This document shows, piece after piece, positions 6,173-42,583 of a stretch of DNA of 64,000 bases. Position 1 is the stretch's first letter, and each line of letters starts with the position of its first letter. The stretch is from Lachnospiraceae bacterium (GTDB lineage: Bacteria; Bacillota; Clostridia; Lachnospirales; Lachnospiraceae), in the NCBI GenBank assembly GCA_050309585.1, contig JBNRML010000073.1:7950-71949 (forward strand), in the 5' to 3' direction. A model generated the notes under the pieces. That model was given only the letters and a program-made list of their open reading frames with translations, searched no databases and was not told where the DNA came from. A program made the position numbers and the translations under genes.

Positions 6173-7021
6173 ATGGAAAATAATAATGATAAAAAAGCTT
6201 TATTCCACGAAATGCTGACCTTTTTAATTGAATCTGCAAACATTAACAATGGCACTCTCACAATGGAAGAAATTCAGAATGCCTTAAAGGACGTAATTGA
6301 TGATGATTCCATGTATCAATTAGTTTACGATTATCTTTTAGAAAACAAAATTACAATCAAGGGATATATTTCCACGGAAAAAGAAATAAAAACAGGCAGC
6401 GCTACTCATACGTATTCAAAAACTGCGGAGGATTCTCTTGAAAAAAAATTTATTGATATGTATATGGAAGAAATCTGTAATGTCTCTTCCCCCGCGGAAG
6501 AAAAAGAACTTGAACTCCTTTCGGAGCTCATTGTTGCTCCTGACAACAAAGAAACTGTAAATCAGCTTGTAGAAGGAAATTTAAACAAGGTTTTGACAAT
6601 TGTTGAAAGTTACAAAGGAAAGGGTGTCTCTTTCGGAGATCTCATTCAAGAGGGAAACTTGGGATTAATTGAGGGAATCCTCACTTATACTGACACATTA
6701 TGTAAAGAAATCCCAGTTTGTGATTTTACAGTCTCTGAAAAAGACCTTGAAAGCTTTCACAATCACTTAACCTCAACAATAGTAAAGGCATTGGAAGATG
6801 CCATTCTTGAGCAAAACACCTCTGCAAGAATTTATGCTCACACTGTGGACCGCGCAAACGAGCTTGACCGCGCCTCTATCGAATTGAGCAAAAAACTTGA
6901 CCGCACACCTACTCTTGAGGAATTGGCCAAACACGTTGCACTTCCTGAAGATGAAGTTGAAAGAATTATGAAAATGTCCCTTGATGCACTTACAATTAAC
7001 CAAAATGTGGATGAAGAATAG
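6173..7021 (+). CDS. RpoD-like sigma-70 domain protein (regions 1.1, 1.2, 2, 3; no region 4)
   Basis: LVEGNLNKVLTIVESY (r2.1), DLIQEGNLGLIEG (r2.2), LDRTPTLEELA (r3); protein ends before any region 4 HTH. Confidence 0.8.
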   Translation: MENNNDKKALFHEMLTFLIESANINNGTLTMEEIQNALKDVIDDDSMYQLVYDYLLENKITIKGYISTEKEIKTGSATHTYSKTAEDSLEKKFIDMYMEEICNVSSPAEEKELELLSELIVAPDNKETVNQLVEGNLNKVLTIVESYKGKGVSFGDLIQEGNLGLIEGILTYTDTLCKEIPVCDFTVSEKDLESFHNHLTSTIVKALEDAILEQNTSARIYAHTVDRANELDRASIELSKKLDRTPTLEELAKHVALPEDEVERIMKMSLDALTINQNVDEE

Positions 7022-7327: not shown

Positions 7328-8176
7328 TCAGTTTTTCTCATTAAGTAACTTTCTCAGTTCTGCAATCTCAGCATCCTTTTCTGCAGTTACCGCTTTGATT
7401 TCAGCATCCTTTTCAGCAAGTTTTGCATCCCTCTTAGCAAGTTCTGCATCCTTCTCTGCAAGTTTTTCTGCAAGTTCAGCGTCTTTTTTTGCAAGTTCAT
7501 CGGCATATATCTCTTTTGCGTATTCTTCGACTATTTCACACATAATCTCACGTCCTTCCTCAGAATCCTTGTAATATTTTATGGTTTTGCTTAATTCTGG
7601 GTACATTTTATCATCAAAGCTTTCTTTTTGCAAAAACAACTTTAATAAATGAGTGTATTTATTTTCCTCATCACTCCTGGCATTTGCAAATACGATGTCT
7701 TCCCCATCATTAATCGGCCTGTACACATCATCTGTCATCTGGCATCTTGATATGTGGGTTACGGCCTGACCATTTCCCAGTGCGTCATATTCCGTTATGT
7801 ACAGAATTTTGATGTTCGGAATGTCACTGAACTTTGTGCTTTTTGGAGTGTGGTTAACGGTAAGTATTGAGGCATGAAATCTTACTCTTTTAATGTCGTC
7901 ATTTGAATTTGATTTTTGCATCTCAATGTTACACAGGGTTCCGTCTCCAAGCTCACATAATGCATCAAGAATCACTTCCCTTTCCAGGCTTGATTCACTT
8001 TTCTGGGGCGTCACCTTTTTCACAATGAGCATCTCGTCATCAAGAAGTGTTCGCAGCATTTCCTGACAGACTAACTTATGGCTTGCTATAACCCTGAAAA
8101 ACGCATCATCAATAATTCGCAGGTTTTTAACTCTGCTGAGGGTTTCCTTGTTAATTTCCTTTTTTCCCTTTTTCAT
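7328..8176 (-). CDS. Rpn-family / PD-(D/E)XK nuclease family 'transposase' with repetitive coiled-coil C-terminus
   Basis: IDDAFFRVI, EVILDALCELGDGTLCNIEMQ, RVRFHAS motifs; C-terminal AEKDAE repeats; own RBS (GAGGAG) and sigmaA-like promoter (TTGCAT-17-TAATAT, 8248-8220). Confidence 0.85.
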   Translation of the reverse strand: MKKGKKEINKETLSRVKNLRIIDDAFFRVIASHKLVCQEMLRTLLDDEMLIVKKVTPQKSESSLEREVILDALCELGDGTLCNIEMQKSNSNDDIKRVRFHASILTVNHTPKSTKFSDIPNIKILYITEYDALGNGQAVTHISRCQMTDDVYRPINDGEDIVFANARSDEENKYTHLLKLFLQKESFDDKMYPELSKTIKYYKDSEEGREIMCEIVEEYAKEIYADELAKKDAELAEKLAEKDAELAKRDAKLAEKDAEIKAVTAEKDAEIAELRKLLNEKN

Positions 8177-10186: not shown

Positions 10187-13162
10187 TTATAAGAAATCCT
10201 GTTCAGTCAATTGTTTATAGTGACCTTTTCCTCTCTTCATTCTGCTAAATATTTTAGAAATTCCAAATCTGTTGGCATTCTCAATGGCATCATCTATTAC
10301 TTCCTGAATATCTTCAATGGACATTGCAGGATTTCTGCCGCTGATGTCATCTAATTTTGCATATAGTGCCAATTCGCCCATTTCGTCTATCTCATACATC
10401 TGTTCAAGGGCATAGTCTTTAGCAATTTTAACCATATCGTTGATTTCCATTTCATGGATATCCAGACGATTATTGAAGAATACTTTTAATTCCGGATTAT
10501 TTACTAACATCCTGTCGATTGCAGCCTTGTCATCCTCCAGGATAATAAGCATTTCCTCCGTATAATTCTTCATTGCGCTCATAAGGTCAACAATCGTATT
10601 AGGCATAAGATTTCCGGCCTGTTCAATAATAAGGTCAGTTCCCAAAATCTTCATCATTGCCGGTGCAACGCCCTTTTTATTGAGTGCAGACGCCTTAACC
10701 TTTGCAACTCTTCTACCGCCTCTGTTTCTTCCCTGGTTTGCCGCTTTGATGAGACTTAATCCCAATGTTGTCTTTCCAACCTTAGCCGAACCGGTAATAA
10801 TGACATTATTTGTTCTGGATGTTCCATCCAGGGTATAGTTGCTGATAAGATTCTCCAATGTCTCGGCAATATCCTCTTCCATACTTCCGGTGCCCACAAA
10901 TTCATTGAAAAGTGATGCGTATTTCTCAGGAATATGTGTAGAATCAGAATCATCGTTAGCGCCAATTTCCACAATAGACGCGACTGTTTTCTTTTCTTCT
11001 TTTTTCTTAATTTTCTTCTTTTCTTCCTGTTCTGAATCCTTTTCTTCTACTTCCTCTGATTTTCCACCAGGAATATCTTCTGTGCTGTCAGTCTCTGAAT
11101 TTTCTTCAGTCTGCTCCTCATCTGATTCAGCTTTATTATCAACATCTTCTTCTATATCTTCAAAATCATCTTCTGTCTTAATGGCGGACAAATCCGCAGC
11201 CTCTTTTTCTGCCTCAATTCTCTCGTATTCAGCCAGAACTTCATCGATTGTCATCTGACCTTCTATCTGTTCGTCATCCACATTGACTTCTTCTGTCTCT
11301 TCCTTCTGCTCCTCAGCCTTTTCCGGATAAACCATTTCTCCTGCCGGGCTGATGGTAATTCCCGCATTCAAAAGTCTGTTAATTTCTGCTCTGTCGATAA
11401 TCTTTGTTGGCTCATTTTCATAATCTGATAAATAGTCATCCTCTTCATAAGGAATGTCATCTGATTCAGCTTTATCATTCATTTTTACATAGTCGTCTTC
11501 TTCTGAAGCTTTGTTAACACTTTCTGTGTTTTCATCCGGAAATGCCTCAATGGCTGAAAAGATTTTTTCAACCTCTGACATAGTATCCTCAGTTTTTTCT
11601 TCTTCGGAATCCTCTTCTGACTCTTCAACTTCTTCAGCTGCTTCCTCAGAAACCTCTTCTGGCTCTTCAACTTCTTCAGCTACTTCCTCGGAAACCTCTT
11701 CTGGCTCTTCAACTTCTTCAGCCACTTCCTCAGAAACCTCTTCTATCTCTTCGATTTCTTCGTCTTCTTCGTCCGAAACTTCTTCCTTTTCAAAAAATCC
11801 AGTGTCACCCTTACGTGAAGGTCTTATCTCATCTTCCTCATCATCGATTCTCATCTCAAATGCATTTTTCGAGCCACTGTTTTCTTCACTGAAGAGACGT
11901 TCCATACTTTGTGCCAAAGCAGCCTGTATATTGGCGGTATTATATAAATTATTGCTATCCTCCAATTTGATATTGATTTCATCAACATCTATTTCAGCGG
12001 TCTTTGTCAGTTCTTCTCCAATATTTGAAACCTTGCCTTCCTTATTTTTATCAAATTCAAATATTTCTATTACAGAATCCCTGCGTTTAAAGTCTGATTT
12101 TCCGGCCTTAGCCACCTTTTCCTTAGCCTGATTTGCACGCATTCTTGCTTCTTCCACAAGCTTTCTTGCCATATCAGCAGCTCTCTGTGCCTCCAGTGCT
12201 GCTTCCTCTGCTGCCCTAAGTGCTGCATTTGCCATCTTTTCTTCTTCAGTTTCAAATTCTTCTTCCTGTGCTGAAGCTTTATCAGCTTCCTCTGCTCTTC
12301 TGGCCATTTCTCTGGCAGCATCACTAATACTGAACCTGCTTACTTCCTCTTCTGTCATTTCATCATCAAGATATTCTTCCTGCATATTTTCATCAAGCTC
12401 TTCATACTCTTCTTCATCAGTTTCTAAAGCTTCATCCTGCCTCTGACTATCTTCCTCATCCTTTGACAAAATAGCCTCTGCCAGCTCTTCCATACTGGAT
12501 TTCTTTTCTTTTTTGACTTCCACTACAGGCTCCGCTATAACGGCGCCGCCATAGATTTTATTATATTCTTCCAGCATTCCTGTAATAAGTCTTTTTAATT
12601 CTTTAGCTTTTTCAACATATTTTCCATTATTAAACCAGAGAATCAACTCATCACACATCTTAATACATTTGTCATCCTGGTCATTTTCATGATACAGTTT
12701 TGCAAGCTCATACTGCCATCTTTCATCCATCTCAACGTCAATATATGCTTCAAGAATTTTAATTAATACTTCTATATCCTCACCCTTTGCCTTGGCGATA
12801 CGATATTTAAGCAAATATTGTGACACGTCTGAAGGTGACATTTCAACAAAATCCTGATAAAACTCATCAGCTTCTACAAAGTTTTTTGTTCTCAATGCCA
12901 GTATGGTGAGCTTGTATGCCAGCTGTCTTCCCAAAGGAGATCTCTCATAGGCAATCAACAGAACTTCCTTGGCTTTTTCATACTGTTTTGTATTTTCATA
13001 TATATCTGCAACCCTGTTAATCATATTATTGTCCTTAACACGATACCAGTCAATTTCATCTGCAATTTTTGCAGCTGCAGCAAATTCTCTCTGACTATAC
13101 AACTTCTTAATCTGATCTGATTTAACATTGTATTCGTACTTATCCAACCTTTTTTCCTCCAT
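10187..13162 (-). CDS. TPR-repeat protein with acidic low-complexity linker and C-terminal AAA+-like P-loop domain
   Basis: N-terminal helical repeats (YEKAKEVLLIAYER...), a long E/D-rich middle, Walker A ITGSAKVGKTT and a degenerate Walker B LIIEQA. Confidence 0.7.
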   Translation of the reverse strand: MEEKRLDKYEYNVKSDQIKKLYSQREFAAAAKIADEIDWYRVKDNNMINRVADIYENTKQYEKAKEVLLIAYERSPLGRQLAYKLTILALRTKNFVEADEFYQDFVEMSPSDVSQYLLKYRIAKAKGEDIEVLIKILEAYIDVEMDERWQYELAKLYHENDQDDKCIKMCDELILWFNNGKYVEKAKELKRLITGMLEEYNKIYGGAVIAEPVVEVKKEKKSSMEELAEAILSKDEEDSQRQDEALETDEEEYEELDENMQEEYLDDEMTEEEVSRFSISDAAREMARRAEEADKASAQEEEFETEEEKMANAALRAAEEAALEAQRAADMARKLVEEARMRANQAKEKVAKAGKSDFKRRDSVIEIFEFDKNKEGKVSNIGEELTKTAEIDVDEINIKLEDSNNLYNTANIQAALAQSMERLFSEENSGSKNAFEMRIDDEEDEIRPSRKGDTGFFEKEEVSDEEDEEIEEIEEVSEEVAEEVEEPEEVSEEVAEEVEEPEEVSEEAAEEVEESEEDSEEEKTEDTMSEVEKIFSAIEAFPDENTESVNKASEEDDYVKMNDKAESDDIPYEEDDYLSDYENEPTKIIDRAEINRLLNAGITISPAGEMVYPEKAEEQKEETEEVNVDDEQIEGQMTIDEVLAEYERIEAEKEAADLSAIKTEDDFEDIEEDVDNKAESDEEQTEENSETDSTEDIPGGKSEEVEEKDSEQEEKKKIKKKEEKKTVASIVEIGANDDSDSTHIPEKYASLFNEFVGTGSMEEDIAETLENLISNYTLDGTSRTNNVIITGSAKVGKTTLGLSLIKAANQGRNRGGRRVAKVKASALNKKGVAPAMMKILGTDLIIEQAGNLMPNTIVDLMSAMKNYTEEMLIILEDDKAAIDRMLVNNPELKVFFNNRLDIHEMEINDMVKIAKDYALEQMYEIDEMGELALYAKLDDISGRNPAMSIEDIQEVIDDAIENANRFGISKIFSRMKRGKGHYKQLTEQDFL
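11622..11744. repeat. 42-bp tandem repeat x~3 inside the TPR gene
   Basis: Unit tcttcaacttcttcagc(t/c)(g/a)cttcctc(a/g)gaaacctcttctggc, encoding EEVSEE(V/A)AEEVEEP-type repeats. Confidence 0.9.
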
Positions 13163-13213: not shown

Positions 13214-13309
13214 ATATCTGGTCATATAGAGTAAGTGTATCACACCATACTTACATTGTCAAAAACCTATTACCTAAAATTTCAGGCTAAATTTTATGCC
13301 ACATTGGTT

Positions 13310-16300
13310 TTAGAACAGCCTGGTTTGTTCATATTCCAATGCAGTATACTCCATTTCGTCATTATTAACATTACTGAAATAGTCAACCACAACCGTCTGC
13401 TGTTTCCCATCACATATTTTCTGTCCCAAAACATAATTTACATCAAATTTTCCTGTAATTGCAGGTGTTGCCCCTCTGGCGGGCACAACAAGCTGCACAT
13501 TATTTGTTTTCAAAAGCTTAAATATAGGCTCCCAGATGTAAACATCCTTTGCCGCTCCAAAGGGGTTATCAATAAAAATAACCTTCTTAAGCCTTGATGC
13601 ATCAGCATTCTTTGAATTTATGCTGGAAATATAGTTTATTATTGATATAAGAAATTGTATGTATATACCCTGTGACTGTCCTGTGCTTCCCACTGCCTCT
13701 TCATAAGGAAGAAATCTTGACTGGTCTGCAATTCTTTCCCTCTTATATAAATTCAATTTGATTGCATTCATATCAGAGACTATAACAGAAAACATTTTTT
13801 TCCATGACAGATTATTTTTAATGTACTTAAGTCGCTCTTCCTCAGTTTCAATGTTATCCGTAGCCTTAACCAGCCTGTCAATGTACTCTGACATCCTGTC
13901 CTCATACATCTCTTCTTTTATATATGGTATTTTCAAATTGATTACGGAAATATTCTCGTTATCAATGTTGATTTTTGAAAGCTTCGACAGCCTGTCAAGC
14001 TCCGTCTTAATATTTATGCAGCTCTGAATACACTGTTTTTCAAAATTTTCCTTAATAATCTGGATATCTGAAAGACCTTTTATAACTCTCTGTTTCTCAA
14101 GTTCAATCAGCTCATTAGTTTCCTTAAGCATTTTGATTAACTCTGATGTTTCTTCCAAATCTGCAGGCATATTAATATTGAGTCTGAACTCTGAAGCAAG
14201 GTCCTGTGCACCGAGTTTCTTTAATGTCTCACATAAAAGTGATAATTCCTTAAGGAACTGCTCTCCCTTTTTGAATTTTTCTTCTATGAATTTGTCTAAC
14301 TTTTCTGAGGTTTCCTGACAAACCTTCTCAAGCTGAACTCCTGTCTCGAAAACTCCCACGCACACATCCTGTTTTATTCCGGATTTTGTCATAAGTCTGG
14401 TTACATCCCTCCTTAAAGATATAACGCTTATCTGCTTTCCTTCAATATCCTTAATGCACCTGTTTATCTCTTCTAATCTTCCATCGAGCTCATGTAGAAT
14501 TCGTCCATTCTCTTCAAGGAAAATCTTAACTTCTTCCTGCTTCACTAAATTTTCATCAAAGCTTCCATATTTGTTTTTCAGAAGTGCCACAGAATGATTT
14601 ATCTTACCCTTGAGGATATCCTTTTCTGTTCTTATTTCCTGAATTGTCTTTCTCTTCTGCTTTTCTCTGTTCCTCAAATCGCTCTGATGCTTTTTAATTT
14701 CCGAAAGCTCTTTTGATGTGCTGTGTATCAATTCATTGTTGCGATACATATTTTCAAATATAATAATATCCATTCCCATGTAATCTATATGGCTAAGACT
14801 TCTTTCCATGTTGGTCTGATAATTCTCGAGTAACTTCTCTTTATCCGCCACAGAATTGTTTTCCTTCCTGATGGCCTCAAATGCAGCCTGAATCTTTATC
14901 TCCAGCTCATCATAAGAATACATCATCTGTTTCTCCTGACTATTTTTGACCTCTGAGTAAACAGATTCGTCAAAATATCCAGCCACCACGCCGCTCCAGA
15001 ACTGTTTTTTTCCTTCAAGTTCTTCTATTAACGAAGCCATTCTGAAATTACTCTGTTCCCTTACATTTTTATGAGCCTCCAGACGTTTTAAAAGGTCATT
15101 GTTTTCCTTCTCTCCACGGGCTTTTATTTCCTTCTTATCCCTTATGAAAATCTCAGTTTCATGGAAATCGTCTACCAGTTCAACAAGTCTTTGAAGAGAA
15201 ATAATAGCCTTCCGAATATCTTCCTGTGCAATATGATTTTTAACCTGATTTTCCTTAAGATTTCTCTCAGCTTCCCTTGTCTCATCAAGCCTTCTCATCA
15301 AGTCAACCTGTTTTTTTGTATGCTCATCAATTTCATTTGACAGATTTTCTATTGCCTCATCAGGGTTTATGTCTTCACTTGCAAAATAATTATCCATTAC
15401 AGAGCGAACAAACAAGAAGTCCTCTTTTACAACCTGCTCATTCTCACACTTTCTGCGCAATACCCTCTCAAGCTCAAGCTTGTCATTATTTAATTTTTCA
15501 CGTTTCTTATTGATTCCCCCTTTACTAAAATCAACAAGAGCAACGGTGAGAAACGCAAAAGCCTCTATATCATTTTTATCAATCTTATGAATATTTTCAC
15601 CGTTAATAACAGGTAAAATCTGCCCTGTCTTTATCAAACCGGAAATCCTTGAATCCATAATTATCTGCTCATAATTTTCAAATGCAATTATGGCATAAGG
15701 CAGTAAAGGAATTCTGTTTACCAGTTCCCTTCTCTCCTCCTCATCTGTTTTTGCAAGATAATCAGCACCCGAAATTGCCTTTGTACTGTGATATCTCTGA
15801 ACATAATTCAATACATTTAAAATATCCTCTGTCTCACTAAATGCCTTTCCAAGCTCCAGATTTTTTATTTCCTGTTCATTGTCCTTACCCTGTTTTGACG
15901 CAGTCTCCACAGCCAGAATCATATTTCTATAAGTTTTTTCGATATTTTCAGCAAGCTTATTCAAATCACTTTCCTGGTATACCTGCTTAATTTTATTTAG
16001 TTTATCGTGAACAGATAAAAGTTTCGCGACATTGTTCTGAATACTTAATTTCTTTTCTTCCTTGTGCTGAATCTGGTGCTTCTCATCCTGTATCTCAATT
16101 TTTAAATTTAATATGACATCACTTAATCTTTCTAATTCAGCTTCTATTTCAGCCGCTTCTTTATTAAGCTCTTCTTCCTGAAGTTTTATTTCCCTCAGCC
16201 TGTTTTTCGCCTCAGCCGGAAGCAGAATTCCTGCATTATTTTTTTCTTCTATCATCTCGGCATTAACTTTTTCAAGATGCTTTTGTTTTTCAGCCAGCTG

Positions 16301-17743
16301 ATAATCTAAAACCGTGATAAGACTTGCCTTTTTCTTAATCTCATCCTCAAGTTCGGAAATAGCCATACTTTCCTTGTCATCCACTTCCTTTTCTGCCTGT
16401 ACCTTCTTCTGAAGCTCAGCAAGTTTTTCGCCATCAAAAATTTTCTTTATTGCAAGAAGCTCTTTAAGTTCATGAAGCAATGTATCATTTCCCTTAAGAA
16501 TATTGTCCATTACCTGCTTTAGCTTCTCATATTCCTTCTTACACTGCACATATTCAAGGTAGTAATTTCCGCCCTCCAGAAGATTTAATCTCTCATTAAA
16601 GTCTGTTATCTCTTCTTCAATTACCTCAAACTGCATATTTTCCGCCTGAAGTCTTTCCTCAAGTTCACTTAATGTTTTCATATCCACAAGAATACGGGCA
16701 GTCTCAACCTTCTGCTCTAACATATCCTTGTCCTTTTTTATCTCAGCCCTGACTTCAATATTTTTTTCCAAGTCCTTTTTATTTTTATCCTCTAAAGCCT
16801 CCAAAGTGTTCAGGGATTTTTTAAGATTTGTAAATGCATCCTCTATTCCCGAATAAAGCTGCTTTATCGTATTTACCCTCTCAGCAAATCCCTCAATAAT
16901 TTCAATCTGCCGGTCATAATTATTGATTTCGTCCTTCTTTTTTGACAATTCAATAAGTTTATCTTTTATGTTAAGCAAAGTCTCTGCAAGACTTCCATCC
17001 TTATCATTATCTGCATATCTGTTTTTAAAGGATTTCTCAATTATCTCCTCAATAAGAAGGTCCTCGACGACCTTTCTCGTTGTCTTATAATTTGTTTCAA
17101 AATAAGTTCTGACATGTCCCTCAGTCTTATTTATTCCACGTATTATTTCCCATTCGCTTTCATAAAGGCCATATTCTGCAATAAATCTCTGATAGTCACC
17201 TTTGCGCTCAAATATCTTAACCTCCAGACTCATATCCCTCTTCTGAAGCTCCCTAAGATAATTTTTCAAGCCCTGGTAGGTCACTCTCTCTCCATCCTTC
17301 GCCAAAGGAAAATTCTTTATGTCATGGTCATTAAAATTTCTATAAAAAATGCAATAATTGAAATATTCAATGGATGTGCCATTCTTCCTGTCTGACTCAT
17401 TCTCTTCTCCCGAATCCTTTGCCTTTCTCGCGCAGAATCCGGTGAGCATATACCTAAAATTGTCCTTTATATGAACATCACTGAGACTCCACTCAATCAT
17501 TGAATGAATGGTGGTGCTGCCCTCATTTGTTCTGAAAAGCTTTTCTATGGGCTGTTTGTCATCCAGGCTACAATTAGGAATGAGATTCTGAAGCAGTAAA
17601 AGCATTAACACACTTTTTCCGCCACCATTTGCCAAATCATAAATGGTATTTTTGCAGGAAAAGCGCATTAAAAAGTCATCATAAAACTGGGTTCCAAAAT
17701 TATATTTAACGTTGTTTACCCTTATTCTGTTAATATGTGGCAT
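13310..17743 (-). CDS. jetC: SMC/MukB-like ATPase, Wadjet type III JetC-like
   Basis: Walker A DLANGGGKS, ~1000-aa coiled coil, signature-like GSTGQS and Walker B-like IFIDNPFG; follows jetA/jetB-like genes. Confidence 0.8.
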   Translation of the reverse strand: MPHINRIRVNNVKYNFGTQFYDDFLMRFSCKNTIYDLANGGGKSVLMLLLLQNLIPNCSLDDKQPIEKLFRTNEGSTTIHSMIEWSLSDVHIKDNFRYMLTGFCARKAKDSGEENESDRKNGTSIEYFNYCIFYRNFNDHDIKNFPLAKDGERVTYQGLKNYLRELQKRDMSLEVKIFERKGDYQRFIAEYGLYESEWEIIRGINKTEGHVRTYFETNYKTTRKVVEDLLIEEIIEKSFKNRYADNDKDGSLAETLLNIKDKLIELSKKKDEINNYDRQIEIIEGFAERVNTIKQLYSGIEDAFTNLKKSLNTLEALEDKNKKDLEKNIEVRAEIKKDKDMLEQKVETARILVDMKTLSELEERLQAENMQFEVIEEEITDFNERLNLLEGGNYYLEYVQCKKEYEKLKQVMDNILKGNDTLLHELKELLAIKKIFDGEKLAELQKKVQAEKEVDDKESMAISELEDEIKKKASLITVLDYQLAEKQKHLEKVNAEMIEEKNNAGILLPAEAKNRLREIKLQEEELNKEAAEIEAELERLSDVILNLKIEIQDEKHQIQHKEEKKLSIQNNVAKLLSVHDKLNKIKQVYQESDLNKLAENIEKTYRNMILAVETASKQGKDNEQEIKNLELGKAFSETEDILNVLNYVQRYHSTKAISGADYLAKTDEEERRELVNRIPLLPYAIIAFENYEQIIMDSRISGLIKTGQILPVINGENIHKIDKNDIEAFAFLTVALVDFSKGGINKKREKLNNDKLELERVLRRKCENEQVVKEDFLFVRSVMDNYFASEDINPDEAIENLSNEIDEHTKKQVDLMRRLDETREAERNLKENQVKNHIAQEDIRKAIISLQRLVELVDDFHETEIFIRDKKEIKARGEKENNDLLKRLEAHKNVREQSNFRMASLIEELEGKKQFWSGVVAGYFDESVYSEVKNSQEKQMMYSYDELEIKIQAAFEAIRKENNSVADKEKLLENYQTNMERSLSHIDYMGMDIIIFENMYRNNELIHSTSKELSEIKKHQSDLRNREKQKRKTIQEIRTEKDILKGKINHSVALLKNKYGSFDENLVKQEEVKIFLEENGRILHELDGRLEEINRCIKDIEGKQISVISLRRDVTRLMTKSGIKQDVCVGVFETGVQLEKVCQETSEKLDKFIEEKFKKGEQFLKELSLLCETLKKLGAQDLASEFRLNINMPADLEETSELIKMLKETNELIELEKQRVIKGLSDIQIIKENFEKQCIQSCINIKTELDRLSKLSKINIDNENISVINLKIPYIKEEMYEDRMSEYIDRLVKATDNIETEEERLKYIKNNLSWKKMFSVIVSDMNAIKLNLYKRERIADQSRFLPYEEAVGSTGQSQGIYIQFLISIINYISSINSKNADASRLKKVIFIDNPFGAAKDVYIWEPIFKLLKTNNVQLVVPARGATPAITGKFDVNYVLGQKICDGKQQTVVVDYFSNVNNDEMEYTALEYEQTRLF

Positions 17744-18449
17744 CAGCTTCTCCTCCTTTCATAATCTCATAAAGTCGTCCCTTATATTCCTCAAAATAAT
17801 TTCTAATCAATGCCTTAAGTCTTTTCTTTGGATAATATCTTCCATTGTTTTCAATAACAAGCTCCTGTTTCACCAGAAAATTCATTGTCATTTTGACAAA
17901 TCCAACCTTTGAGCCTCTGGCAGCCTTTGCAGTAGTATCTTCATTGGCAACCATGGGAAGGTCCTCCCACACAAGCGCTATAGCCTTAAAGCTGTTCTCC
18001 TCAACCTCGTCAAGGTTTAACATTTGAAGATTATTTACAGTTCCCGACAAAGAACTGTCAACACTGTTTATCAAATCCTCCACCTTCACATACTCATTGA
18101 AGGTCACATTTTCTGTGTCATTATAGAACCAGGTTATCAGATTATAAATTATAAAATAACACAAAAAAAGCTCCCTGTTCAGCCTTACCCCTATCTCTCT
18201 TTTAAGCTCTTCATTGGAATAGCCGAACACACGATTATTCTCTCCTGCAGAAGCAAAAATTGCATTTTCGTACTCATAAATTGACAGATTCATATTCTTG
18301 CATATTGTATTTGTAATCTCATACACTTCGCTATTGTCAATATATGCCTCATAAAGGGAATATGTTTCCTTGTCGTCTCTGCTTACCTCTTCTCCTGTTA
18401 TAAGCTTTGATATAATTTCAAGTGCCTTGGTTAAATTTCTATCTTCCAC
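17730..18449 (-). CDS. jetB: Wadjet JetB-like / MksE-like KITE protein (DUF6063-like)
   Basis: 239 aa with VFGYSNEELK and LCYFIIY motifs; overlaps the jetC start; middle position of the trio. Confidence 0.7.
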   Translation of the reverse strand: MEDRNLTKALEIISKLITGEEVSRDDKETYSLYEAYIDNSEVYEITNTICKNMNLSIYEYENAIFASAGENNRVFGYSNEELKREIGVRLNRELFLCYFIIYNLITWFYNDTENVTFNEYVKVEDLINSVDSSLSGTVNNLQMLNLDEVEENSFKAIALVWEDLPMVANEDTTAKAARGSKVGFVKMTMNFLVKQELVIENNGRYYPKKRLKALIRNYFEEYKGRLYEIMKGGEADATY

Positions 18450-18452
18450 AGC

Positions 18453-19964
18453 TTACCTCTTTTCCGTGACAAATCTCACATTTAATATTTCGTTTCCATG
18501 TATATTTATAATTTCTTCCTCTTCTAAAGGTTCCACATCAAATGTGAGATATTTATACTTCTCTTCCTTAACATTTTTCATAAAGCCCTCTAAAAATGTG
18601 TCTGGCTTCTCCCTGATTTCCATCATATCATAATGTCTCTTCTGACAAATGTGCACCATAAATGAGTAATAATCTGAATTATTGAACACGTTTTCTGAAA
18701 ACCTGCCCTTAAGTTCTTCATTAAACTCATTCACATCAAAGCTTTCCTTTTCGACAAGAAGCTCAAACAATGTATCAAGCATTTTACAGAAGTTTGAATC
18801 TATCCTCTCATCCTGAAGCTCGTCCTCGTATTTAAAGTCAGAATCATAGCTAAGTTTTTTTATTTTTTCTCCATTTTCTTTTTCTTCAGCCTTCAAATTA
18901 AGCATATTATCAATCACGGTAAGAGAAAATGTCTTTTTATTATTTAGCTTTAGAAGCGGTTTAATGAGACTGGAAAGATTTGAAGAATCATCTCTTGCAA
19001 TCATTTCTGACATAATTCTTCTAAAATCAAATCTTGCCTTTATTCTGCCAATCTTTGCCTTATGGACCATTTCATCCACTGTTGACTGAAGATTTGTGCA
19101 GGCAAGCAACAGTTCTGAATGCTTGTTCATCGCCCTGTTTAGCTCCGTCTCCAATTTGTAAATATCCTCCATGGCCTGATAAAATTCCTGATTTCCCTCT
19201 GCTGTCCTAAGCGCCTTTTCGATAAGCTGTTTATTCTTCTCAAAGAGTTTCTGCTCATCATCAAACCATTTTACCGTGGTGTCTATAAATTCTTCATAGG
19301 CCTTTGTCCCCTCGAAAACATTAAAGCTCAATATCCCCAAAATCTCATCCTTTTTGGATATCAGACGGCTCACTTCATTATTTATTCTGGCAACAACTTC
19401 TGTTCCACCCTTGAAATTGTGGTTAGAAATCATTTTACTAAGCAGTACCTGTGCCACGGTTATATTTGATTCATCTTTAACCTCTTTTGTATCCAGATAA
19501 AATTCTATTGCGTCTGAAGTAATGTAATACACCACATTATCTTCTACTATTTTATTATCAATAATCCTTGTCCTAAGCACAGCCTTCTTTTTTGTTACAG
19601 GATTAAAATATTCGTATGTAAATGGTTTACCCTCATTTTTGAGCTTGTCAAAAATAAAGCTCACCAGCTCTTTTTCCTCTTCTTTATTCATTTCAAGTTC
19701 AAAATCACGCCTCAAAAGCTCCCCGCAAAAATCTGCATACTCTTTGTAGGTCACCATTTTTTCCCTGAAATTATTTTCTTCAATAAAAAAGCGTAACACC
19801 GCCATCATGATATATCCCATATCCAGTTTCTCAAAACGTCCGTCCCTGTACTGGGAAAAGGACGTTTCAGTCAACTTAAAAAACGGGTAATATTTCTTGA
19901 TGTTCAGCATACGCTCATTATGATCATAAACTATATCTCTAACTAATGTATATTCCTCGGACAT
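18453..19964 (-). CDS. jetA: Wadjet JetA-like / MksF-like kleisin
   Basis: 503 aa, winged-helix-like N-terminus (YYITSDAIEFYLDTKE) plus helical region; first gene of a translationally coupled trio with an SMC ATPase. Confidence 0.65.
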   Translation of the reverse strand: MSEEYTLVRDIVYDHNERMLNIKKYYPFFKLTETSFSQYRDGRFEKLDMGYIMMAVLRFFIEENNFREKMVTYKEYADFCGELLRRDFELEMNKEEEKELVSFIFDKLKNEGKPFTYEYFNPVTKKKAVLRTRIIDNKIVEDNVVYYITSDAIEFYLDTKEVKDESNITVAQVLLSKMISNHNFKGGTEVVARINNEVSRLISKKDEILGILSFNVFEGTKAYEEFIDTTVKWFDDEQKLFEKNKQLIEKALRTAEGNQEFYQAMEDIYKLETELNRAMNKHSELLLACTNLQSTVDEMVHKAKIGRIKARFDFRRIMSEMIARDDSSNLSSLIKPLLKLNNKKTFSLTVIDNMLNLKAEEKENGEKIKKLSYDSDFKYEDELQDERIDSNFCKMLDTLFELLVEKESFDVNEFNEELKGRFSENVFNNSDYYSFMVHICQKRHYDMMEIREKPDTFLEGFMKNVKEEKYKYLTFDVEPLEEEEIINIHGNEILNVRFVTEKR

Positions 19965-20001: not shown

Positions 20002-20250
20002 TTAATTCTGATTTAACGGACACTTTTTCAACTGCTTCATATTGCAGTCCTGAATCGTTCCGCTCTGACAGGTAACTAATTCTCCACGCACGAAACAAAA
20101 ACCGTTTGTTTCATCTATTTTCTTATTAATCGCCTTCTGCTCATCGAGGTAACATTTTCTTACCTGTTTCACATTGCAATCCTGTACTCTTCCTGGAATA
20201 CAGTCCACCAATTCGCCTTTAAAAAAACAAAATGCTTTCTGTTCTGCCAT
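20002..20250 (-). CDS. small Cys-rich protein made of two ~35-aa repeats
   Basis: Two copies of FCFx(K/R)GELVxCxxGxxQDCNxKQxxKCxL; ATG 20250 with GAGG RBS; lies between recR and jetA. Confidence 0.75.
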   Translation of the reverse strand: MAEQKAFCFFKGELVDCIPGRVQDCNVKQVRKCYLDEQKAINKKIDETNGFCFVRGELVTCQSGTIQDCNMKQLKKCPLNQN

Positions 20251-20292
20251 AATAATCCTCATTCCTAACTATAATATCTTTCAACAAAACAC

Positions 20293-20889
20293 CTACATAT
20301 TTACTCTTCCTTCTAAGGCCTTCAAAAGTGTAACCGAATCCACATACTCCAAATCTCCGCCTACCGGCACCCCACTGGCAATTCTTGTAACCTTAATCCC
20401 AGTCGGTTTTAGAAGCTTACTTATGTAAACTGCTGTGGTTTCTCCTTCAAGACTTGAGTTGGTGGACACAATCACCTCATCAACATCCCCCTTAAGTCTC
20501 TCCATAAGCTCTTTGAGCTTTATGTCGTTTGGCCCTATGCCTAACATTGGTGAAATTGCACCGTGTAAAACATGATACACGCCATTATATTGACCTGTTT
20601 TCTCATATGCTGCCAAATCTCTTGTATTTTCAACAACCATAATAGTCTTGTGGTCTCTTTTCTGGCTCTTGCATATAGGACATAATTCTTCGTCTGTAAG
20701 CGTGAAACATTCCTTGCAATATCTCACATTGTTCTTTGCCGAGGTAATGGCTTCTGTCAATGCCTCAACCTGTTCCTTCGGCATGCTTATTATATGAAAA
20801 GCAAGACGACCGGCAGATTTTGCACCAATCCCCGGCAACCTTGAAAACTCTTCTATCAGCTTTGATATGTGACTGCTATAGTAATCCAT
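20293..20889 (-). CDS. recR: recombination mediator RecR
   Basis: [15 protein letters not shown]4 zinc finger CKEC...[19 protein letters not shown]. Confidence 0.97.
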
Positions 20890-20923: not shown

Positions 20924-21277
20924 TTAAAATGGAAAACCTCCGCCTAAGCCACCAAGACCTCCTGTGATTTTAGCCATTGACTGCTGTGAAATCTCCTCAA
21001 TTTTTCTAAGTGCTTCATTTGTGGCAGCCATTATCAAATCCTCAAGCATCTCTATATCATCCGGGTCCACAACCTCTTCTGCAAGTTTGACCTTAACAAC
21101 TTCTTTTTTTCCTGAAACAGTAACTTCAACTGCTCCACCACCAGCTGTGGCTGTAACTTCTTTTTCTTCTAATTCCTTTGTTGTCTCTTCCATCTGTCTC
21201 TGCATTTTCTGAGCCTGCTTCATCAGATTATTCATATTTCCAGGCATACCTCCCTGGAATCCTCCTCTTTTTGCCAT
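20924..21277 (-). CDS. ybaB: YbaB/EbfC nucleoid-associated protein
   Basis: [29 protein letters not shown]; canonical dnaX-ybaB-recR order. Confidence 0.96.
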
Positions 21278-21280
21278 GTC

Positions 21281-22879
21281 TTAAAAGTCCTCCTCTTCCT
21301 CGTCTTCATCTATATTTTCAATATTAAAATTAATTGACTCAATATTAAGTCCCATATATGACTCTTCATATGCCTGTTCTTTCTTCAGACACCTGAACTC
21401 CAGCGGAACCTCCTTGCCAATCACCCTGGCAATTTCAGCTTTAACCATTTCAATATTCTCTGGCTTATTGTCAATATCCCATTGAATATCATCAGTATAT
21501 ACAACGCATAATGTATGATTTTCATCTATGCTAAGCCTGTTTTTTCTCATCATTATCCCAAGCCTGCCATCAATTCCCCTGGTAATGCTCTGCCAGTTTT
21601 CCGCAACCTTTTGTATTTCCTCCGGAACAGCCATTTCAAGTTTTTTCTCAGTCACATTGTTTGTCATATCTGAAGCAGCCGCTGCCCCAGTGTTTACCAT
21701 CGCGGCACGGTTATCCACTAGTATACCATTTTCCAGTTTTTTTTCAATATTTGCAACACGATTCTTAAGAGATTCGTAGTCTTTTTCCATTGAAGGCTGC
21801 ATAATTTTAATTAATGCGATTTCTATCAATACCCTCTTTTGTGATGAATACTTGATTTGATTTGTAAGCTCTGACAGAATCCGTATATATCGCATTATGG
21901 TGTCTGTCTCAAGATGGTTTGCTTCCTCCTTTAAAGCTTCCAGTCTCTCCGACGACATATCAATAATTTCTTCCGCTTCCTCTGAATTTTTCAGAAGCAG
22001 CATATTTCTAAGATACCATGTCATGTCCACCACAAATTGCGAAAGATCTCTTCCATAACTAATCATTTCCTCTATCAGCTTCATACATTCCACTGTATTT
22101 TCACTGATAATTGCACGAAGCATGTTGCTGAATATTTCAGTATCCACAGCACCCAGGATTTCCAAAACCTTGTCATAGCTTAACTTTTCTCCTATGCTAA
22201 ACGCCTCGCACTGGTCAAGGAGACTCAAGGCATCTCGCATAGAACCGTCAGCGGTCTTCGCAATAAACCTTAATGCCTTATCCTCAACCTCAATGTCCTC
22301 CTTTTCACAAAGCTCCTGCAGTCTGTCCTTTATTACATCCACGGAAATATGCTTAAAATCATATCTCTGACATCTGGACAATATTGTAATCGGAATTTTA
22401 TGTGCTTCTGTGGTTGCAAGAATGAAAATTACATATTTAGGTGGTTCCTCCAATGTCTTTAACAATGCATTAAAAGCACTTGTTGATAACATATGAACCT
22501 CATCCACAATATATACCTTATATTTTCCCTCTGTCGGTCTGTACTGCACTTCCTCCACTATCTGTCTGATGTTCTCAACACCATTATTTGACGCGGCATC
22601 CATCTCAATCACGTTCATTGAAATACCGGCAGAAATAGCTTTACACATGGAACACTCGTTACATGGATTACCATTTACGGGATTTTCACAATTCACCGTT
22701 TTCGCAAATATCTTTGCCACTGTGGTTTTTCCGGTTCCCCTTGTTCCACAGAAAAGATAAGCATGTCCTATTCTGTCAGATATTATCTGATTTTTCAATG
22801 TAGTTGTAATGTGCTCCTGACCTTTTACGTCATCGTATATATCCGGTCTGAATTTCCTGTATAATGCTGTATATGACAT
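21281..22879 (-). CDS. dnaX: DNA polymerase III subunit gamma/tau
   Basis: ALYRKFRP, GTRGTGKTT, DAASNNGV, DEVHMLS, ILSRCQ. Confidence 0.97.
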   Translation of the reverse strand: MSYTALYRKFRPDIYDDVKGQEHITTTLKNQIISDRIGHAYLFCGTRGTGKTTVAKIFAKTVNCENPVNGNPCNECSMCKAISAGISMNVIEMDAASNNGVENIRQIVEEVQYRPTEGKYKVYIVDEVHMLSTSAFNALLKTLEEPPKYVIFILATTEAHKIPITILSRCQRYDFKHISVDVIKDRLQELCEKEDIEVEDKALRFIAKTADGSMRDALSLLDQCEAFSIGEKLSYDKVLEILGAVDTEIFSNMLRAIISENTVECMKLIEEMISYGRDLSQFVVDMTWYLRNMLLLKNSEEAEEIIDMSSERLEALKEEANHLETDTIMRYIRILSELTNQIKYSSQKRVLIEIALIKIMQPSMEKDYESLKNRVANIEKKLENGILVDNRAAMVNTGAAAASDMTNNVTEKKLEMAVPEEIQKVAENWQSITRGIDGRLGIMMRKNRLSIDENHTLCVVYTDDIQWDIDNKPENIEMVKAEIARVIGKEVPLEFRCLKKEQAYEESYMGLNIESINFNIENIDEDEEEEDF

Positions 22880-22883
22880 TTAA

Positions 22884-23954
22884 TTAATCTCCAAAACTGA
22901 TTCCTATCAATTTAGCCTCTTTGATAATAGATGACTCAGGATCAACATATTTGAGTTTTCCTGCCACCTCTTCTAAAGGCACTTTCACTATTTCATTATT
23001 TTTAATACCAACCATATATCCATATTCTTTATTTATAATGAGGTCTGCTGCGGCTGCACCGAATCTTGTGGATAAGACCCTGTCATAAGGGCATGGTGCT
23101 CCACCTCTCTGTGTGTGCCCCGGAATTGTAACCCTGATTTCCTGACCAGTCTTTTTATTAATCTGGTCACCAATTTCATAAGAAATTGAAGGATACACAG
23201 ATTTTGCTCTCTTCTCTTTTAATTTCTTTTTAGAAAGTGCCGCATCCTCTTTAGAAATTGCACCTTCTGCAACAGCAAGAATGGTAAAGTTTTTTCCCTG
23301 CTTTGTCCTCTTATTTATTGCATCGACAATTTTATCAATATCATATGGAATCTCAGGAAGAAGGATGATGTCAGCTCCACTTGCAATACCTGCATGAAGA
23401 GTCATCCATCCAACCTTATGTCCCATAACCTCTACAATAAAGCATCTTCCATGTGATGCTGCCGTAGTGTGTATACAGTCAATTGCACTTGTGGCTATAT
23501 TAACCGCACTCTGGAAACCAAAGGTCATATCAGTTCCATAAATATCATTATCTATTGTCTTTGGACAGGTGACTACATTAAGTCCCTCTTCTCTCAAAAG
23601 ATTTGCCGTCTTATGTGTTCCATTTCCACCCATAATCACAAGACATTCAAGCTTTAACTTCTTGTAAGTGTCTTTCATGAGCTTAACCTTGTCATTCCCC
23701 TTTTCATCAGGTACTCTCATAAGCTTAAAGGGTTGTCTTGATGTACCAATAATTGTACCGCCCTCGGTGAGTATTCCCGAAAAATCCTTTGGCTCAAGTT
23801 TTTTGTAATTTCCATACATAAGCCCTTTATAACCCTCTAAAAATCCATAAATTTCCACATCTTTAACATTTTCATATAAAGATTTTGCAACTCCACGCAT
23901 AGTTGCATTTAAACTCTGACAGTCACCGCCGCTAGTCAACATTCCTACTCTCAT
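22884..23954 (-). CDS. pfkA: 6-phosphofructokinase
   Basis: TSGGDCQSLN, GGTIIGTSR, PKTIDND, VEVMGH, GHTQRGG. Confidence 0.92.
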   Translation of the reverse strand: MRVGMLTSGGDCQSLNATMRGVAKSLYENVKDVEIYGFLEGYKGLMYGNYKKLEPKDFSGILTEGGTIIGTSRQPFKLMRVPDEKGNDKVKLMKDTYKKLKLECLVIMGGNGTHKTANLLREEGLNVVTCPKTIDNDIYGTDMTFGFQSAVNIATSAIDCIHTTAASHGRCFIVEVMGHKVGWMTLHAGIASGADIILLPEIPYDIDKIVDAINKRTKQGKNFTILAVAEGAISKEDAALSKKKLKEKRAKSVYPSISYEIGDQINKKTGQEIRVTIPGHTQRGGAPCPYDRVLSTRFGAAAADLIINKEYGYMVGIKNNEIVKVPLEEVAGKLKYVDPESSIIKEAKLIGISFGD

Positions 23955-24111: not shown

Positions 24112-24374
24112 TCCGTGCGCTTTGCTTTGTATACAGCCCATAAGCGTTACCTCTATAGTTAACTCAGTCCAGGCTACCTCACGGCACACAGAAGGTTTTG
24201 CTTAGTGCTGCTTCATTCCTGACCTGACACAGTTCACAAATTTCTGTTGCGCAAGACCTAAACGTCATCGCCACTTGTAGAGGGCAGCCCTACAGAATAT
24301 ATCCGAGGCAAAACATCACCCCTGCTAGAGCGGGTTGCAGGTACAGGGCACCGCTATCTCCCCGGCTGCACGGA
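24112..24374 (-). ncRNA. ffs: large bacterial signal recognition particle RNA (scRNA)
   Basis: Minus strand begins ccgtgcagccggggagatagcggtgccctgtacctgcaacccgc (Alu domain), contains gtcaggtcaggaatgaagcagc (helix 8) and ends in gcacgga pairing with the 5' end; upstream of the dnaX cluster as is typical. Confidence 0.95.
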
Positions 24375-24485: not shown

Positions 24486-27400
24486 CTACTTCAACAGCTG
24501 CAAAACCATTTCCTGACTGGCATTTGCCTGGGCAATCACTGACTGTCCAACCTGCTGCAAAATACTCAGTTTTGAGTTTTCTACCATTTCAGAAGCCATA
24601 TCCGTATCTCTGAGACGTGACTCTGCACTCTGGGTATTTTCAGAAGTATTCTGATTTCCAAGAACTACATGCTCAAGTCTGTTTTGAACCGCTCCCATTT
24701 CACTTCTCTTTTCAGAAACCTTATCAAGTGCCTTCTGCAGTCTGGCAAGAGCCTTCTCTGCATACTTAGGTTTTGTGATAACTACGGAATTAATTCCAAG
24801 TTCAACCGTGTTAAGTATCTGTTTTTCAAAAGCCATGCTATCCTGACCTGTTCTTCCATTGCCATTTGCTGACGCAGTTCCACCCTTTCCACTCAACTGA
24901 AGATTTAATGTATGATTCTCATCCTGTGCTGACTGGGTTTCAAAAAATAATACAGACTTTGCAGAACCACTTATATTTCCTATAAAGTGCTTTCCATATT
25001 TCTCATAATACATTTTCAAATATCCGTCATCACTTTTAACCTGGACCGAAGCACCCTGGGCTGTCAATTTATCATTTATTTCCTTAATGATTTCATCACT
25101 AGTATAATCACCCTCATCCAAAACAATGCCATAAGCTGTTCCATCTATTTCAAAATTCAATTGATTATTGGTATTATCAATCTTTACACCACCACTCAAA
25201 TCCTTTGCACCTTTGACATAGGCAGTCTCCATTTTTCCTTCAGACTGATAGAATATTGTAAAGGCCGCACTGCCCCTTACACCATCAATGATGAAATCTC
25301 CCTCTGCCGGTGCATTTACATTTTTATTTTGAATAAGGCATAAAGCATTACTGTCATTTGCACCTGCAACTCCTGTATTTACTCCACCTATTTGAGCTTT
25401 AATAAAGTCTTCATTTATTCCTTTTTTTACCAGCTCTTCATTTATCTTCTCCTGAAGTTCTTTGACCAGGGCATCACCTGAATAATTTCCCGCCGCAATT
25501 GTAACACTTATCTTCTCAACTTTATTCCCATATGTCAAATCAAACTCAAGATTGTCATTAACATTTCTTTCAATTACCATCATCTCATTTTTTATATCTC
25601 TGCGGCCTACGGCAAAAGCTGGACTTAAGGACTGAGTACCTGCTTTATTGCTTACCGACACGGTTGTACTGTACTCCCTGGTATCACAGAGAACATAATA
25701 GTAAAATCCCCCCGAAAAATTTCTCATTGTATTGGTGCTTCCCGGTTTTTTACATTCTATTCTGACACCGTTTGCGTCAACCTTAGCTTCAAGCTTTCCA
25801 CTTCCAACTGCATTATCCAGCAGAGTGTTTAAAGTCGTTTTCAACTCATCAAAGGTATATGACTTTTCCGGAAGTATAATATTAACAAATTTATCTGCTC
25901 CCTGGTCCTTAAATGTAAATCTAAGCTGTTTATTATAGCTGTATATATCGACCGGTGATGTTATGTTCGCTCCGTCAATATATGCATAATCGTTTGAGGA
26001 ATATCCGGCAACAGCAGAAGGCGACACATAATTTATTGTTTCGGTATTACTTTGAAAAGCTCCTCCGTTATTTGACGAAACCTGAATGGTTTTATTGTTG
26101 TCTATCGTCGTAAGCTTTAACTTACCATCTCCCGTCATCTCTGCCGTAACACCCGGAGTCTTTTTTGTGGTAGAACCATACAATGCCTCTGCCGAACTTC
26201 CCATGGAAGTATATGACTGATAAATAGATGAATCTGCACCTTTAGTTGTAGTTGTGTATGTGATTTTTCCTCCATTCAGACTTGCAGTAACCGGCACGTT
26301 GCCATCCCTAAACTTTTGATTTAGCATACTCACAAAACCCGACTGACTATATGATCCATTGTCCAGATCAATATTATATGTGGTTCCGTTTACCTTAATG
26401 TTGTATTTATTTGTGTTATCATCAATCACAACAGGATTTTTTATTGTCAAATTTACTGTTCCCGTAGCCGGAGCCTTCGTATATACATCCCCAAACAGAG
26501 GAATCTCACTTGTCCCACCTTTACCATTCTGGTTTGAATAACTAATACTCACTCCATTACCGACCGCTCCTGATGTAAGAACAAGCTTATTTCCACTGGT
26601 TGATGCTTTGACATCTATTCCCTGTTTTGCTAATTGTGTGTTTAATTCATTTGCAAACGTCTGCGGTGTGTAAGTGTTATTGCTAAGAGTCAGATTAACA
26701 TTCCTTACCATCATTCCATCATTATAGGTAAAACTAAATGTATTGGTAGAATCATCAATCTTAATCGAAGATGCCATATCCTTACTTGAAACAGCTTTTG
26801 CCTGTGTTCTTGTAGTAAATAATTCTCTTAAAAAACTGCCATTATTGTTATTGATGCTAATATAAGTGTATCTACCGTCATACTCTTTTCCGTCTGAACC
26901 TTGTGTTCTCGCTGTAAATACAAGCTGATTGTTTTGGTCAAGAGATACCTTGGCACCTCCATAATATTTTGAAAATGCTTCATCAATTTTTTTCTGAATC
27001 TGATCCCTTAACTTCTCCGGTGTGTATTCCCCTGCATCTAACCTTATCATTTTTTCACTAGGTCCGCTATCTCCTTCAATGGAAATGGCAAATTCGTTAT
27101 TTGAGGAATCAATCACCGTTTTCGCACCCAGAGGTTTTGTAACTGTTACCATTGCCGGGATATTTACAGCCGTTGCCCCCCCTATACCCTGTATAGTATC
27201 TGAAACTCCCGTGTTAGACGCACTAAAAGGGGTTACTGACGTATTTCCGCTTCCATTTATTGTAACCGAGTTTGCCGTGGTGGTTCCATAAACATTCAAA
27301 GCCGTAAATGTATTTGGTATTTTCTCAATCTTTTCAGCAAGCTTTTCATTTATCTTTTCCACAAGTTCATCATGGGTATAGGTTCCACTGTCCAAATTAA

Positions 27401-29417: not shown

Positions 29418-29470
29418 AAATCCTTTTCTCCATAACCCTGTATTTATCACATACTAATACTAATACATAT

Positions 29471-34826: not shown

Positions 34827-34862
34827 CACGCATCCTCCTCCTTTTATCATACAGAAACGTTA

Positions 34863-38507: not shown

Positions 38508-38530
38508 ACCTTTCCTCCTATTCTACTTTA

Positions 38531-38549
38531 TGTACTCTCGGAATCTTTC
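38531..38549. promoter_or_regulatory. half-copy of the recurring upstream palindrome
   Basis: tgtactctcggaatctttc just 5' of the RBS of the 1214-aa protease. Confidence 0.45.
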
Positions 38550-38572
38550 AGAAAAACATTAATTTTTTTTAC

Positions 38573-42529: not shown

Positions 42530-42583
42530 ACGCATCTCTCCCATCATAATAATTATTTTGTAGTATCTGTTCAGGCCCGTCTT

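Follow-up and report, generated by a model that had tools for sequence, protein, structure and literature searches.

A JetD-less JetABC cassette of type III Wadjet origin behind recR in the Lachnospiraceae, possibly domesticated as an MksBEF-like complex

What might a Wadjet system be doing on a chromosome when its nuclease is missing? The question is raised by three coupled genes, jetA, jetB and jetC, lying behind dnaX, ybaB and recR in a stretch of 64,000 nucleotides from a Lachnospiraceae bacterium (assembly GCA_050309585.1, contig JBNRML010000073.1, positions 7,950-71,949 of the forward strand), referred to below as the window. Plasmid restriction by Wadjet depends on JetD, and the loss of JetD is the route proposed in the literature from Wadjet to the MksBEF and MukBEF complexes; type III Wadjet, for its part, is described in a 2025 preprint as largely uncharacterised. 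The original prediction, made from the sequence of the window, was of a nuclease-free and possibly domesticated complex in a core replication and repair cluster. Our analysis supports that proposal, since the cassette belongs to a JetD-less clade, was gained once, has descended vertically and is under purifying selection. The best reading of the locus, which we consider somewhat probable, is that it encodes an independently domesticated, nuclease-free, MksBEF-like structural maintenance of chromosomes (SMC) complex of type III Wadjet origin.

The three reading frames stand exactly at the predicted coordinates and lengths:

jetA, 18453-19964, minus strand: 503 residues, type III Wadjet kleisin (JetA3).
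jetB, 17730-18449, minus strand: 239 residues from a GTG start, JetB3 (DUF6063), presumed KITE subunit.
jetC, 13310-17743, minus strand: 1477 residues, JetC3 SMC-like ATPase.

Their assignment to the Jet or Mks families could have been overturned by profile searches, and these instead place all three, over their full length, in Wadjet type III. In PADLOC, JetA matches JetA3 (PDLC00560, E = 8.8e-208, residues 1-501), JetB matches JetB3 from end to end (PDLC00571, E = 1.8e-102) and JetC matches JetC3 (PDLC00581, E = 0, residues 1-1476). The earlier label of a Wadjet/MksBEF-like system is thus kept as Wadjet and corrected to type III. Pfam recognises only JetB, as DUF6063 (E = 4.7e-49), and neither JetA nor JetC has a Pfam or NCBIfam family match. 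The top match in the PDB to an AlphaFold2 model of JetA (mean pLDDT 68) is MukF (9gm7_C, E = 6.8e-5), followed by 7nz2, 3euh and then Escherichia coli JetA (8q72_E). When compared by hhalign, JetA with MukF and JetB with MukE give no significant alignment; by sequence, then, these proteins do not fall into the MukBEF or MksBEF families, JetB being recognised as DUF6063 only. JetC carries a Walker A motif (LANGGGKS, residues 38-44), a signature-like motif (VGSTGQSQG, residues 1351-1359) and a Walker B motif (VIFIDN) with Asn1393 at the position of the catalytic glutamate. A PDB sequence search with the JetC head returned nothing significant; in hhalign, the profile of its C-terminal head sets VGSTGQ on the MukB signature LSTGE and VIFIDN on the MukB Walker B motif LLFLDE. 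The GGGKS of Walker A, the STGQ of the signature and the aspartate of Walker B are conserved in JetC. Of the kleisin, KITE and SMC features first reported, the kleisin and the SMC-like ATPase therefore stand, whereas JetB is a DUF6063 protein with an unconfirmed KITE fold.

The place where a nuclease gene would be expected is set by those relatives that have one. The order jetD-jetA-jetB-jetC is found in all six JetD-bearing type III systems (two on megaplasmids and four metagenomic), and the annotated type III Wadjet of Bacillus mycoides p481 and of a Pontibacillus megaplasmid, in which jetB is DUF6063, have that order. Because these six systems begin with jetD, the JetD slot lies upstream of jetA and not after jetC, where it had also been looked for. 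The slot is taken up in the window by two other genes:

small86, 20002-20262, minus strand: 82-86 residues with two Cys-rich repeats, an optional accessory or passenger.
recR, 20293-20889, minus strand: 198 residues with HhH, zinc finger and Toprim domains (Pfam), the last conserved gene of the upstream operon.

There are 328 bp ahead of jetA and 147 bp past jetC, so that the gaps first given (329 and 148 bp) were right in substance and off by one base each. The sole open reading frame (ORF) in the 328 bp is small86, as had been seen, but its 82 residues, counted from the second ATG, become 86 if the first is used.

Several searches for JetD agree. The PADLOC JetD models match neither small86, recR, the TPR-AAA gene downstream of jetC and the two halves of a split transketolase gene, nor any of 32 further ORFs in the window that are 150 residues or longer; two plasmid JetD proteins, run as positive controls, score 3e-92 and 3e-71 against the JetD3 models of PADLOC. 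A tblastn search with JetD3 proteins yielded nothing. A JetD3 hidden Markov model (HMM) made from six sequences was run unfiltered on 26,061 stop-to-stop frames from the window and about 170 related loci, where it recovered only its own training sequences (next best E = 0.9); no remnant of a jetD pseudogene is visible in these frames. A Toprim domain hidden by fusion in the Jet proteins is ruled out because their lengths equal those of JetD-bearing relatives. The genes found in the gap or upstream at atypical loci encode a cellulase, an ABC transporter, a Mur ligase, CAAX and rhomboid proteases, a PfkB kinase, an aconitase, a histidine kinase and an amylase, with no JetD among them. JetD is absent in cis in the window and in all clade relatives, and the missing nuclease of the original prediction is thereby borne out. 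It is improbable that this is a normal Wadjet system with its jetD at another place in the genome. The span covered (64 kb from the source genome, roughly 20 kb from each relative) leaves room for such a gene; yet jetD sits immediately upstream of jetA in every JetD-bearing type III system examined, the JetD-less state is common to the whole clade in several genomic contexts, and JetABC and JetD of different Wadjet types are not interchangeable.

The wider JetA3 family, which is small (294 clusters at 50% identity among 1.84 billion), indicates how this state came about. Relatives at 31-37% identity have no JetD and lie in varied chromosomal contexts, whereas those at 27-29% all have JetD upstream; two of the latter have defence-like neighbours (a WYL regulator and an anti-Pycsar-like gene). 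The recR-jetA junction is retained in two of the more distant loci examined, L166 and L167. In the JetA tree (all trees were obtained by neighbour-joining on distances derived from p-distances), the JetD-less systems form one clade nested in the JetD-bearing type III diversity, with 296 of 300 bootstraps once locus L168 is set aside. This locus is a 5.2-kb contig of which the JetD status is not known; it groups with the JetD-bearing sisters, and the initial split test failed on it. Since the JetD-less clade is monophyletic and nested among JetD-bearing systems, JetD was lost once in this lineage. Two unusual proteins were observed in the course of this survey: the 605-residue JetA directly after recR in L167 (9001-10818), with a faint Lactamase_B match, and a 700-residue protein with DUF6063, P0332, that looks like a JetA-JetB fusion.

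A scan in which each species was represented by one genome gave 80 loci, almost all of them from Lachnospiraceae, in genera that include Bovifimicola, Roseburia, Lachnospira, Butyrivibrio, Coprococcus, Anaerosporobacter and Catenibacillus, and with JetA at 45-68% identity to that of the window. The comparison of synteny suggested along with the original prediction reveals recR directly upstream of jetA in 62 of these loci, mostly as (pfkA)-dnaX-ybaB-recR-jetA-jetB-jetC; in the 16 loci without recR adjacency, and in the gapped ones, jetABC is flanked by ordinary genes of metabolism or the envelope and in no case by JetD. NCBI labels are doubtful for some records. Three loci titled Thermoflexaceae, Evtepia sp. 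and Desulfovibrio piger (L068, L070 and L075) have the typical Lachnospiraceae arrangement of recR, jetABC, TPR and transketolase genes, and L070 and L075 are nearly gene-for-gene the same as L065 and L069; probably they reflect binning contamination or mislabelling.

In the window itself the remaining members of the locus are the following:

ybaB/ebfC, 20924-21277, minus strand: nucleoid-associated protein gene (Pfam YbaB_DNA_bd, E = 2.9e-35).
dnaX, 21281-22879, minus strand: clamp-loader tau/gamma subunit (Pfam DNA_pol3_delta2, DNAX_ATPase_lid and DNA_pol3_gamma3).
pfkA, 22884-23954: upstream of dnaX in transcription order.
Large bacterial signal recognition particle (SRP) RNA, 24113-24373, minus strand: Rfam RF01854, 180.7 bits, upstream of pfkA-dnaX.
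TPR-AAA gene, 10187-13162, minus strand: 991 residues, downstream boundary of jetABC.
Promoter-like site, 13234-13262, minus strand: TTGACA, 17-nt spacer and TACACT, with TG, from a consensus scan only.

Transcription order thus runs from the SRP RNA through pfkA, dnaX, ybaB, recR, small86, jetA, jetB, jetC and the TPR-AAA gene to the split transketolase, and Pfam identifies all three genes behind which the cassette had been placed. The window, which has a low G+C content and a strong strand bias with nearly all genes on the minus strand, is ordinary chromosome with housekeeping neighbours and no defence island.

The genes that flank the cassette deserve attention as conceivable effectors in place of JetD. 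The TPR-AAA protein consists of a TPR region (residues 1-200), a Glu/Asp-rich low-complexity linker of some 580 residues and a C-terminal SpoVK/CbbX-like P-loop AAA+ domain; its length among relatives ranges from 640 to 1320 residues, and a PDB sequence search found nothing significant. A homolog search with its N-terminal TPR domain gave fragments only, and metagenome contigs were scanned with an 8-sequence alignment of that domain, a 24-sequence alignment being too divergent. The scan found 49 loci in which the gene directly follows recR without jetABC and 11 with jetC adjacent; the gene is a conserved recR neighbour across the Lachnospiraceae. Because it directly follows recR in the Jet-free loci, the TPR-AAA gene predates jetABC at this site; jetA, jetB and jetC thus make up a cassette of three genes which a single fixed junction either contains or lacks. 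The TPR-AAA protein, one of the alternative effectors initially proposed, was rejected on these grounds, and its gene, by the promoter-like site listed above, appears to have its own promoter. The other proposed effector, the Cys-rich small86, carries the sequence FCFxKGELVxCxxGRVQDCNxKQxxKCP twice, with eight conserved cysteines, and has no Pfam, PADLOC or NCBIfam match. We detected it in no more than 14 of the 80 genome loci, which together with two metagenome loci and the window make up 17 aligned sequences (L001-L005, L010, L011, L015, L035-L038, L046, L079, L083 and L088 beside the window), and it stands always immediately upstream of jetA, whether or not recR is linked. Possibly small86 serves this JetABC lineage as a metal-binding accessory.

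That one of these neighbours, or RecR through its Toprim domain, substitutes for JetD is a shade less probable than a JetD encoded elsewhere. The TPR-AAA gene does follow jetC in at least 68 of the 80 loci, small86 always occupies the jetD slot and accompanies jetA even where recR is absent, and RecR holds the JetD position in 62 loci. Nevertheless, the TPR-AAA gene was at the site before Jet, small86 was detected in a minority of loci only and shows no nuclease signature, and RecR is an ordinary conserved ortholog with no JetD profile match that is unlinked from jetABC in 16 loci.

The history of the junction was reconstructed on a tree of DnaX, RecR and PfkA from 53 dereplicated loci, many of the empty-site loci having been redundant before dereplication. 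The 41 occupied loci form one clade with the 12 empty ones outside it, and occupancy of the recR/TPR-AAA junction requires one Fitch change, against 8-11 when the states are shuffled. Pairwise distances of the Jet proteins follow those of the housekeeping proteins (Mantel r = 0.92, with none of 2000 permutations as high), and the correlation of JetC with DnaX (0.915) exceeds that of DnaX with PfkA (0.816). The cassette was gained once at a fixed chromosomal junction and has been vertically inherited since.

It has also been maintained. Ratios of nonsynonymous to synonymous substitution rates (dN/dS), taken from nine close pairs, are 0.02-0.125 for JetA, 0.02-0.085 for JetB and 0.05-0.136 for JetC, compared with 0.03-0.075 for DnaX and 0.003-0.04 for RecR; purifying selection on jetABC is as strong as on DnaX. 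In JetC, conservation of 98% or more is seen at 211 positions, nearly all of them in the two head halves, and the Jet ORFs remain intact while DnaX has diverged to about 50% identity. Unbroken JetC ORFs are found in 75 loci; in two others (L026 and L039, from metagenome-assembled genomes or scaffold assemblies) JetC is split into two ORFs, for which assembly error or a rare real inactivation could be responsible. A decaying, non-functional remnant of defence left behind by the loss of JetD might be read into the missing nuclease and these two split genes among about 77 loci, but the low dN/dS values (0.02-0.14), the intact ORFs and the conserved heads effectively refute it, and we consider it extremely improbable.

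A more serious competitor is that the complex still defends against plasmids or other circular elements without a nuclease of its own, by compacting and silencing circles or by passing stalled DNA to host nucleases. Its descent from type III Wadjet speaks for such a role, as do the ability of type I JetABC alone to perform sensing and total extrusion and the proposal that Smc5/6 silences by compaction. Nonetheless, defence genes are usually patchy and lie in islands, and here we find neither a patchy distribution nor an island or mobile context: there is one junction gain with no detected loss, distances that co-vary with those of housekeeping proteins, a position among core operon genes and a slow, housekeeping-like rate of evolution. 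Known Wadjet restriction, moreover, requires JetD. Defence without a nuclease is hence possible, but in our judgement rather unlikely.

The spacing of the genes bears on how the cassette is expressed. Across the 62 recR-linked loci the gap from recR to jetA has a median of 34.5 bp and a minimum of 0, and does not exceed 40 bp in 34 of them; larger gaps coincide with the presence of small86, L033 being the exception. In the window a 3-bp spacer separates jetA from jetB, which overlaps jetC by 14 bp; the jetB/jetC overlap recurs in nearly all loci. No terminator-like site lies on the gene strand in the recR-jetA intergenic stretch, the only one nearby being inside recR. Judging by this spacing, jetABC is probably co-transcribed with dnaX-ybaB-recR.

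The domestication reading that we favour can be put as follows. JetA, JetB and JetC, as kleisin, presumed KITE and SMC-like ATPase, would assemble into a complex of the MukBEF/MksBEF kind, able to bind and hydrolyse ATP and to extrude loops of DNA, with no nuclease to cut what is captured. Following the single loss of jetD, the jetABC cassette would have been placed between recR and the TPR-AAA gene in the ancestor of a large Lachnospiraceae clade, and passed on under purifying selection at the distal end of the dnaX-ybaB-recR operon. At present the complex would serve the host chromosome, working next to Smc-ScpAB as a second condensin in organisation, segregation or replication-linked repair, and this domestication of a Wadjet would have been independent of, and parallel to, those of MksBEF and MukBEF. 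On the sequence evidence, complex formation, loop extrusion and a chromosomal role for JetABC are all probable. A bolder version, which we advance only tentatively, sees here a third independent conversion of Wadjet into a housekeeping SMC complex, of type III and in Clostridia, which as part of a clamp-loader/YbaB/RecR operon would act at or behind replication forks; its task there might be, no less tentatively, sister-chromosome resolution or replication-coupled repair, and RecR, a Toprim protein from the former JetD slot, could be its physical partner.

Several observations weigh against domestication. The KITE fold of JetB is unconfirmed, with a single-sequence AlphaFold2 model of pLDDT 44 besides the negative hhalign comparison with MukE. 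In JetC, hhalign sets Asn1393 in place of the SMC catalytic glutamate (MukB Glu1407). The loci used for junction occupancy were drawn with two different baits, so that losses within the clade could be under-sampled, and the limited span of the JetD search noted above counts here as well. As for expression, jetC contigs in a bovine metatranscriptome have a depth of 2, comparable to that of dnaX and pfkA, while the SRP RNA reaches 133x, and wastewater runs labelled as RNA-Seq show flat, DNA-like coverage. The 133x contig is explained by the SRP RNA at 24113-24373. Regarding the asparagine, the DNPF form of Walker B (D1392-N1393, window 13565-13570) is invariant in a 25-sequence JetC alignment that includes two JetD-bearing systems, and is also present in six of seven further type III JetC proteins checked; loci with it, beside the window, include L081, L082, L164-L166 and L171-L173. 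This conservation suggests an unusual ATPase cycle for type III as a whole. The cycle of the window JetC may accordingly be unusual as well, though JetD-bearing type III systems have the same asparagine.

Outside the locus, the window holds other features of some interest:

24486-29450, minus strand: a 'giant' flagellin of 1654 residues, with Flagellin_N and Flagellin_C about 1400 residues apart and a methyl-accepting chemotaxis protein (MCP) gene adjoining.
34863-42547, minus strand: two tandem proteins of 1214 and 1324 residues with papain-like Peptidase_C1 and lectin-like domains.
32727-34850: a ChW/Big_2/transglutaminase protein adjoining the Peptidase_C1 pair.
6173-7021, plus strand, and 7328-8176, minus strand: two 282-residue ORFs in opposite orientation, the second with a weak match to Rpn-family recombination-promoting nuclease/transposase (E = 2.7e-5, which does not reach the curated cutoff).

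Set beside known systems, the cassette is closest to type III Wadjet. With those of B. mycoides p481, Pontibacillus and the four metagenomic sisters it shares the JetA3, JetB3 (DUF6063) and JetC3 families, the order and coupling of jetA-jetB-jetC, similar protein lengths and the DNPF Walker B. It differs from them in lacking JetD, in a JetA identity of only 18-28%, and in being fixed in the core genome and vertically inherited, whereas type III systems occupy variable defence-like or plasmid contexts. MksBEF belongs to the type I Wadjet lineage. It has been described as resembling MukBEF, to which it is distantly homologous in sequence. Where it is without MksG, as in Pseudomonas aeruginosa or in the case of mycobacterial MksB, it resembles the window complex as a nuclease-free, Wadjet-derived SMC-kleisin-KITE assembly (the KITE being presumed here) to which a role on the chromosome, next to Smc-ScpAB, is ascribed, as we presume for the complex of the window. 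The latter, in contrast, derives from type III, is found in Clostridia behind recR, and has a JetA and a JetC with no Pfam match. MukBEF, which replaced Smc-ScpAB in the γ-proteobacteria, is likewise vertically inherited, chromosomal and devoid of a nuclease, and it is MukF that the JetA model matches and MukB to which the signature and Walker B of JetC align; on the other hand, hhalign detects no sequence similarity to MukE or MukF, and JetC has asparagine where MukB has Glu1407.

We found no earlier description of this clade in the literature on DUF6063, Lachnospiraceae Wadjet or JetD-less JetABC, and the nuclease-loss hypothesis for MksBEF and MukBEF has not previously been linked to type III. 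That origin has been proposed for both complexes without a traceable example, and the present lineage keeps the intermediates visible: its sisters show the order jetD-jetA-jetB-jetC, the clade without JetD is well supported, the insertion site can be compared with relatives in which it is empty, and vertical retention under purifying selection has been long. It thus offers matched natural pairs for asking how an SMC immune sensor turns into a chromosome organiser, in hosts that are abundant gut commensals. More generally, the case calls for caution in annotation, as matches to JetA, JetB and JetC are not by themselves a sign of plasmid restriction. If our reading is true, many Lachnospiraceae would have a second condensin.

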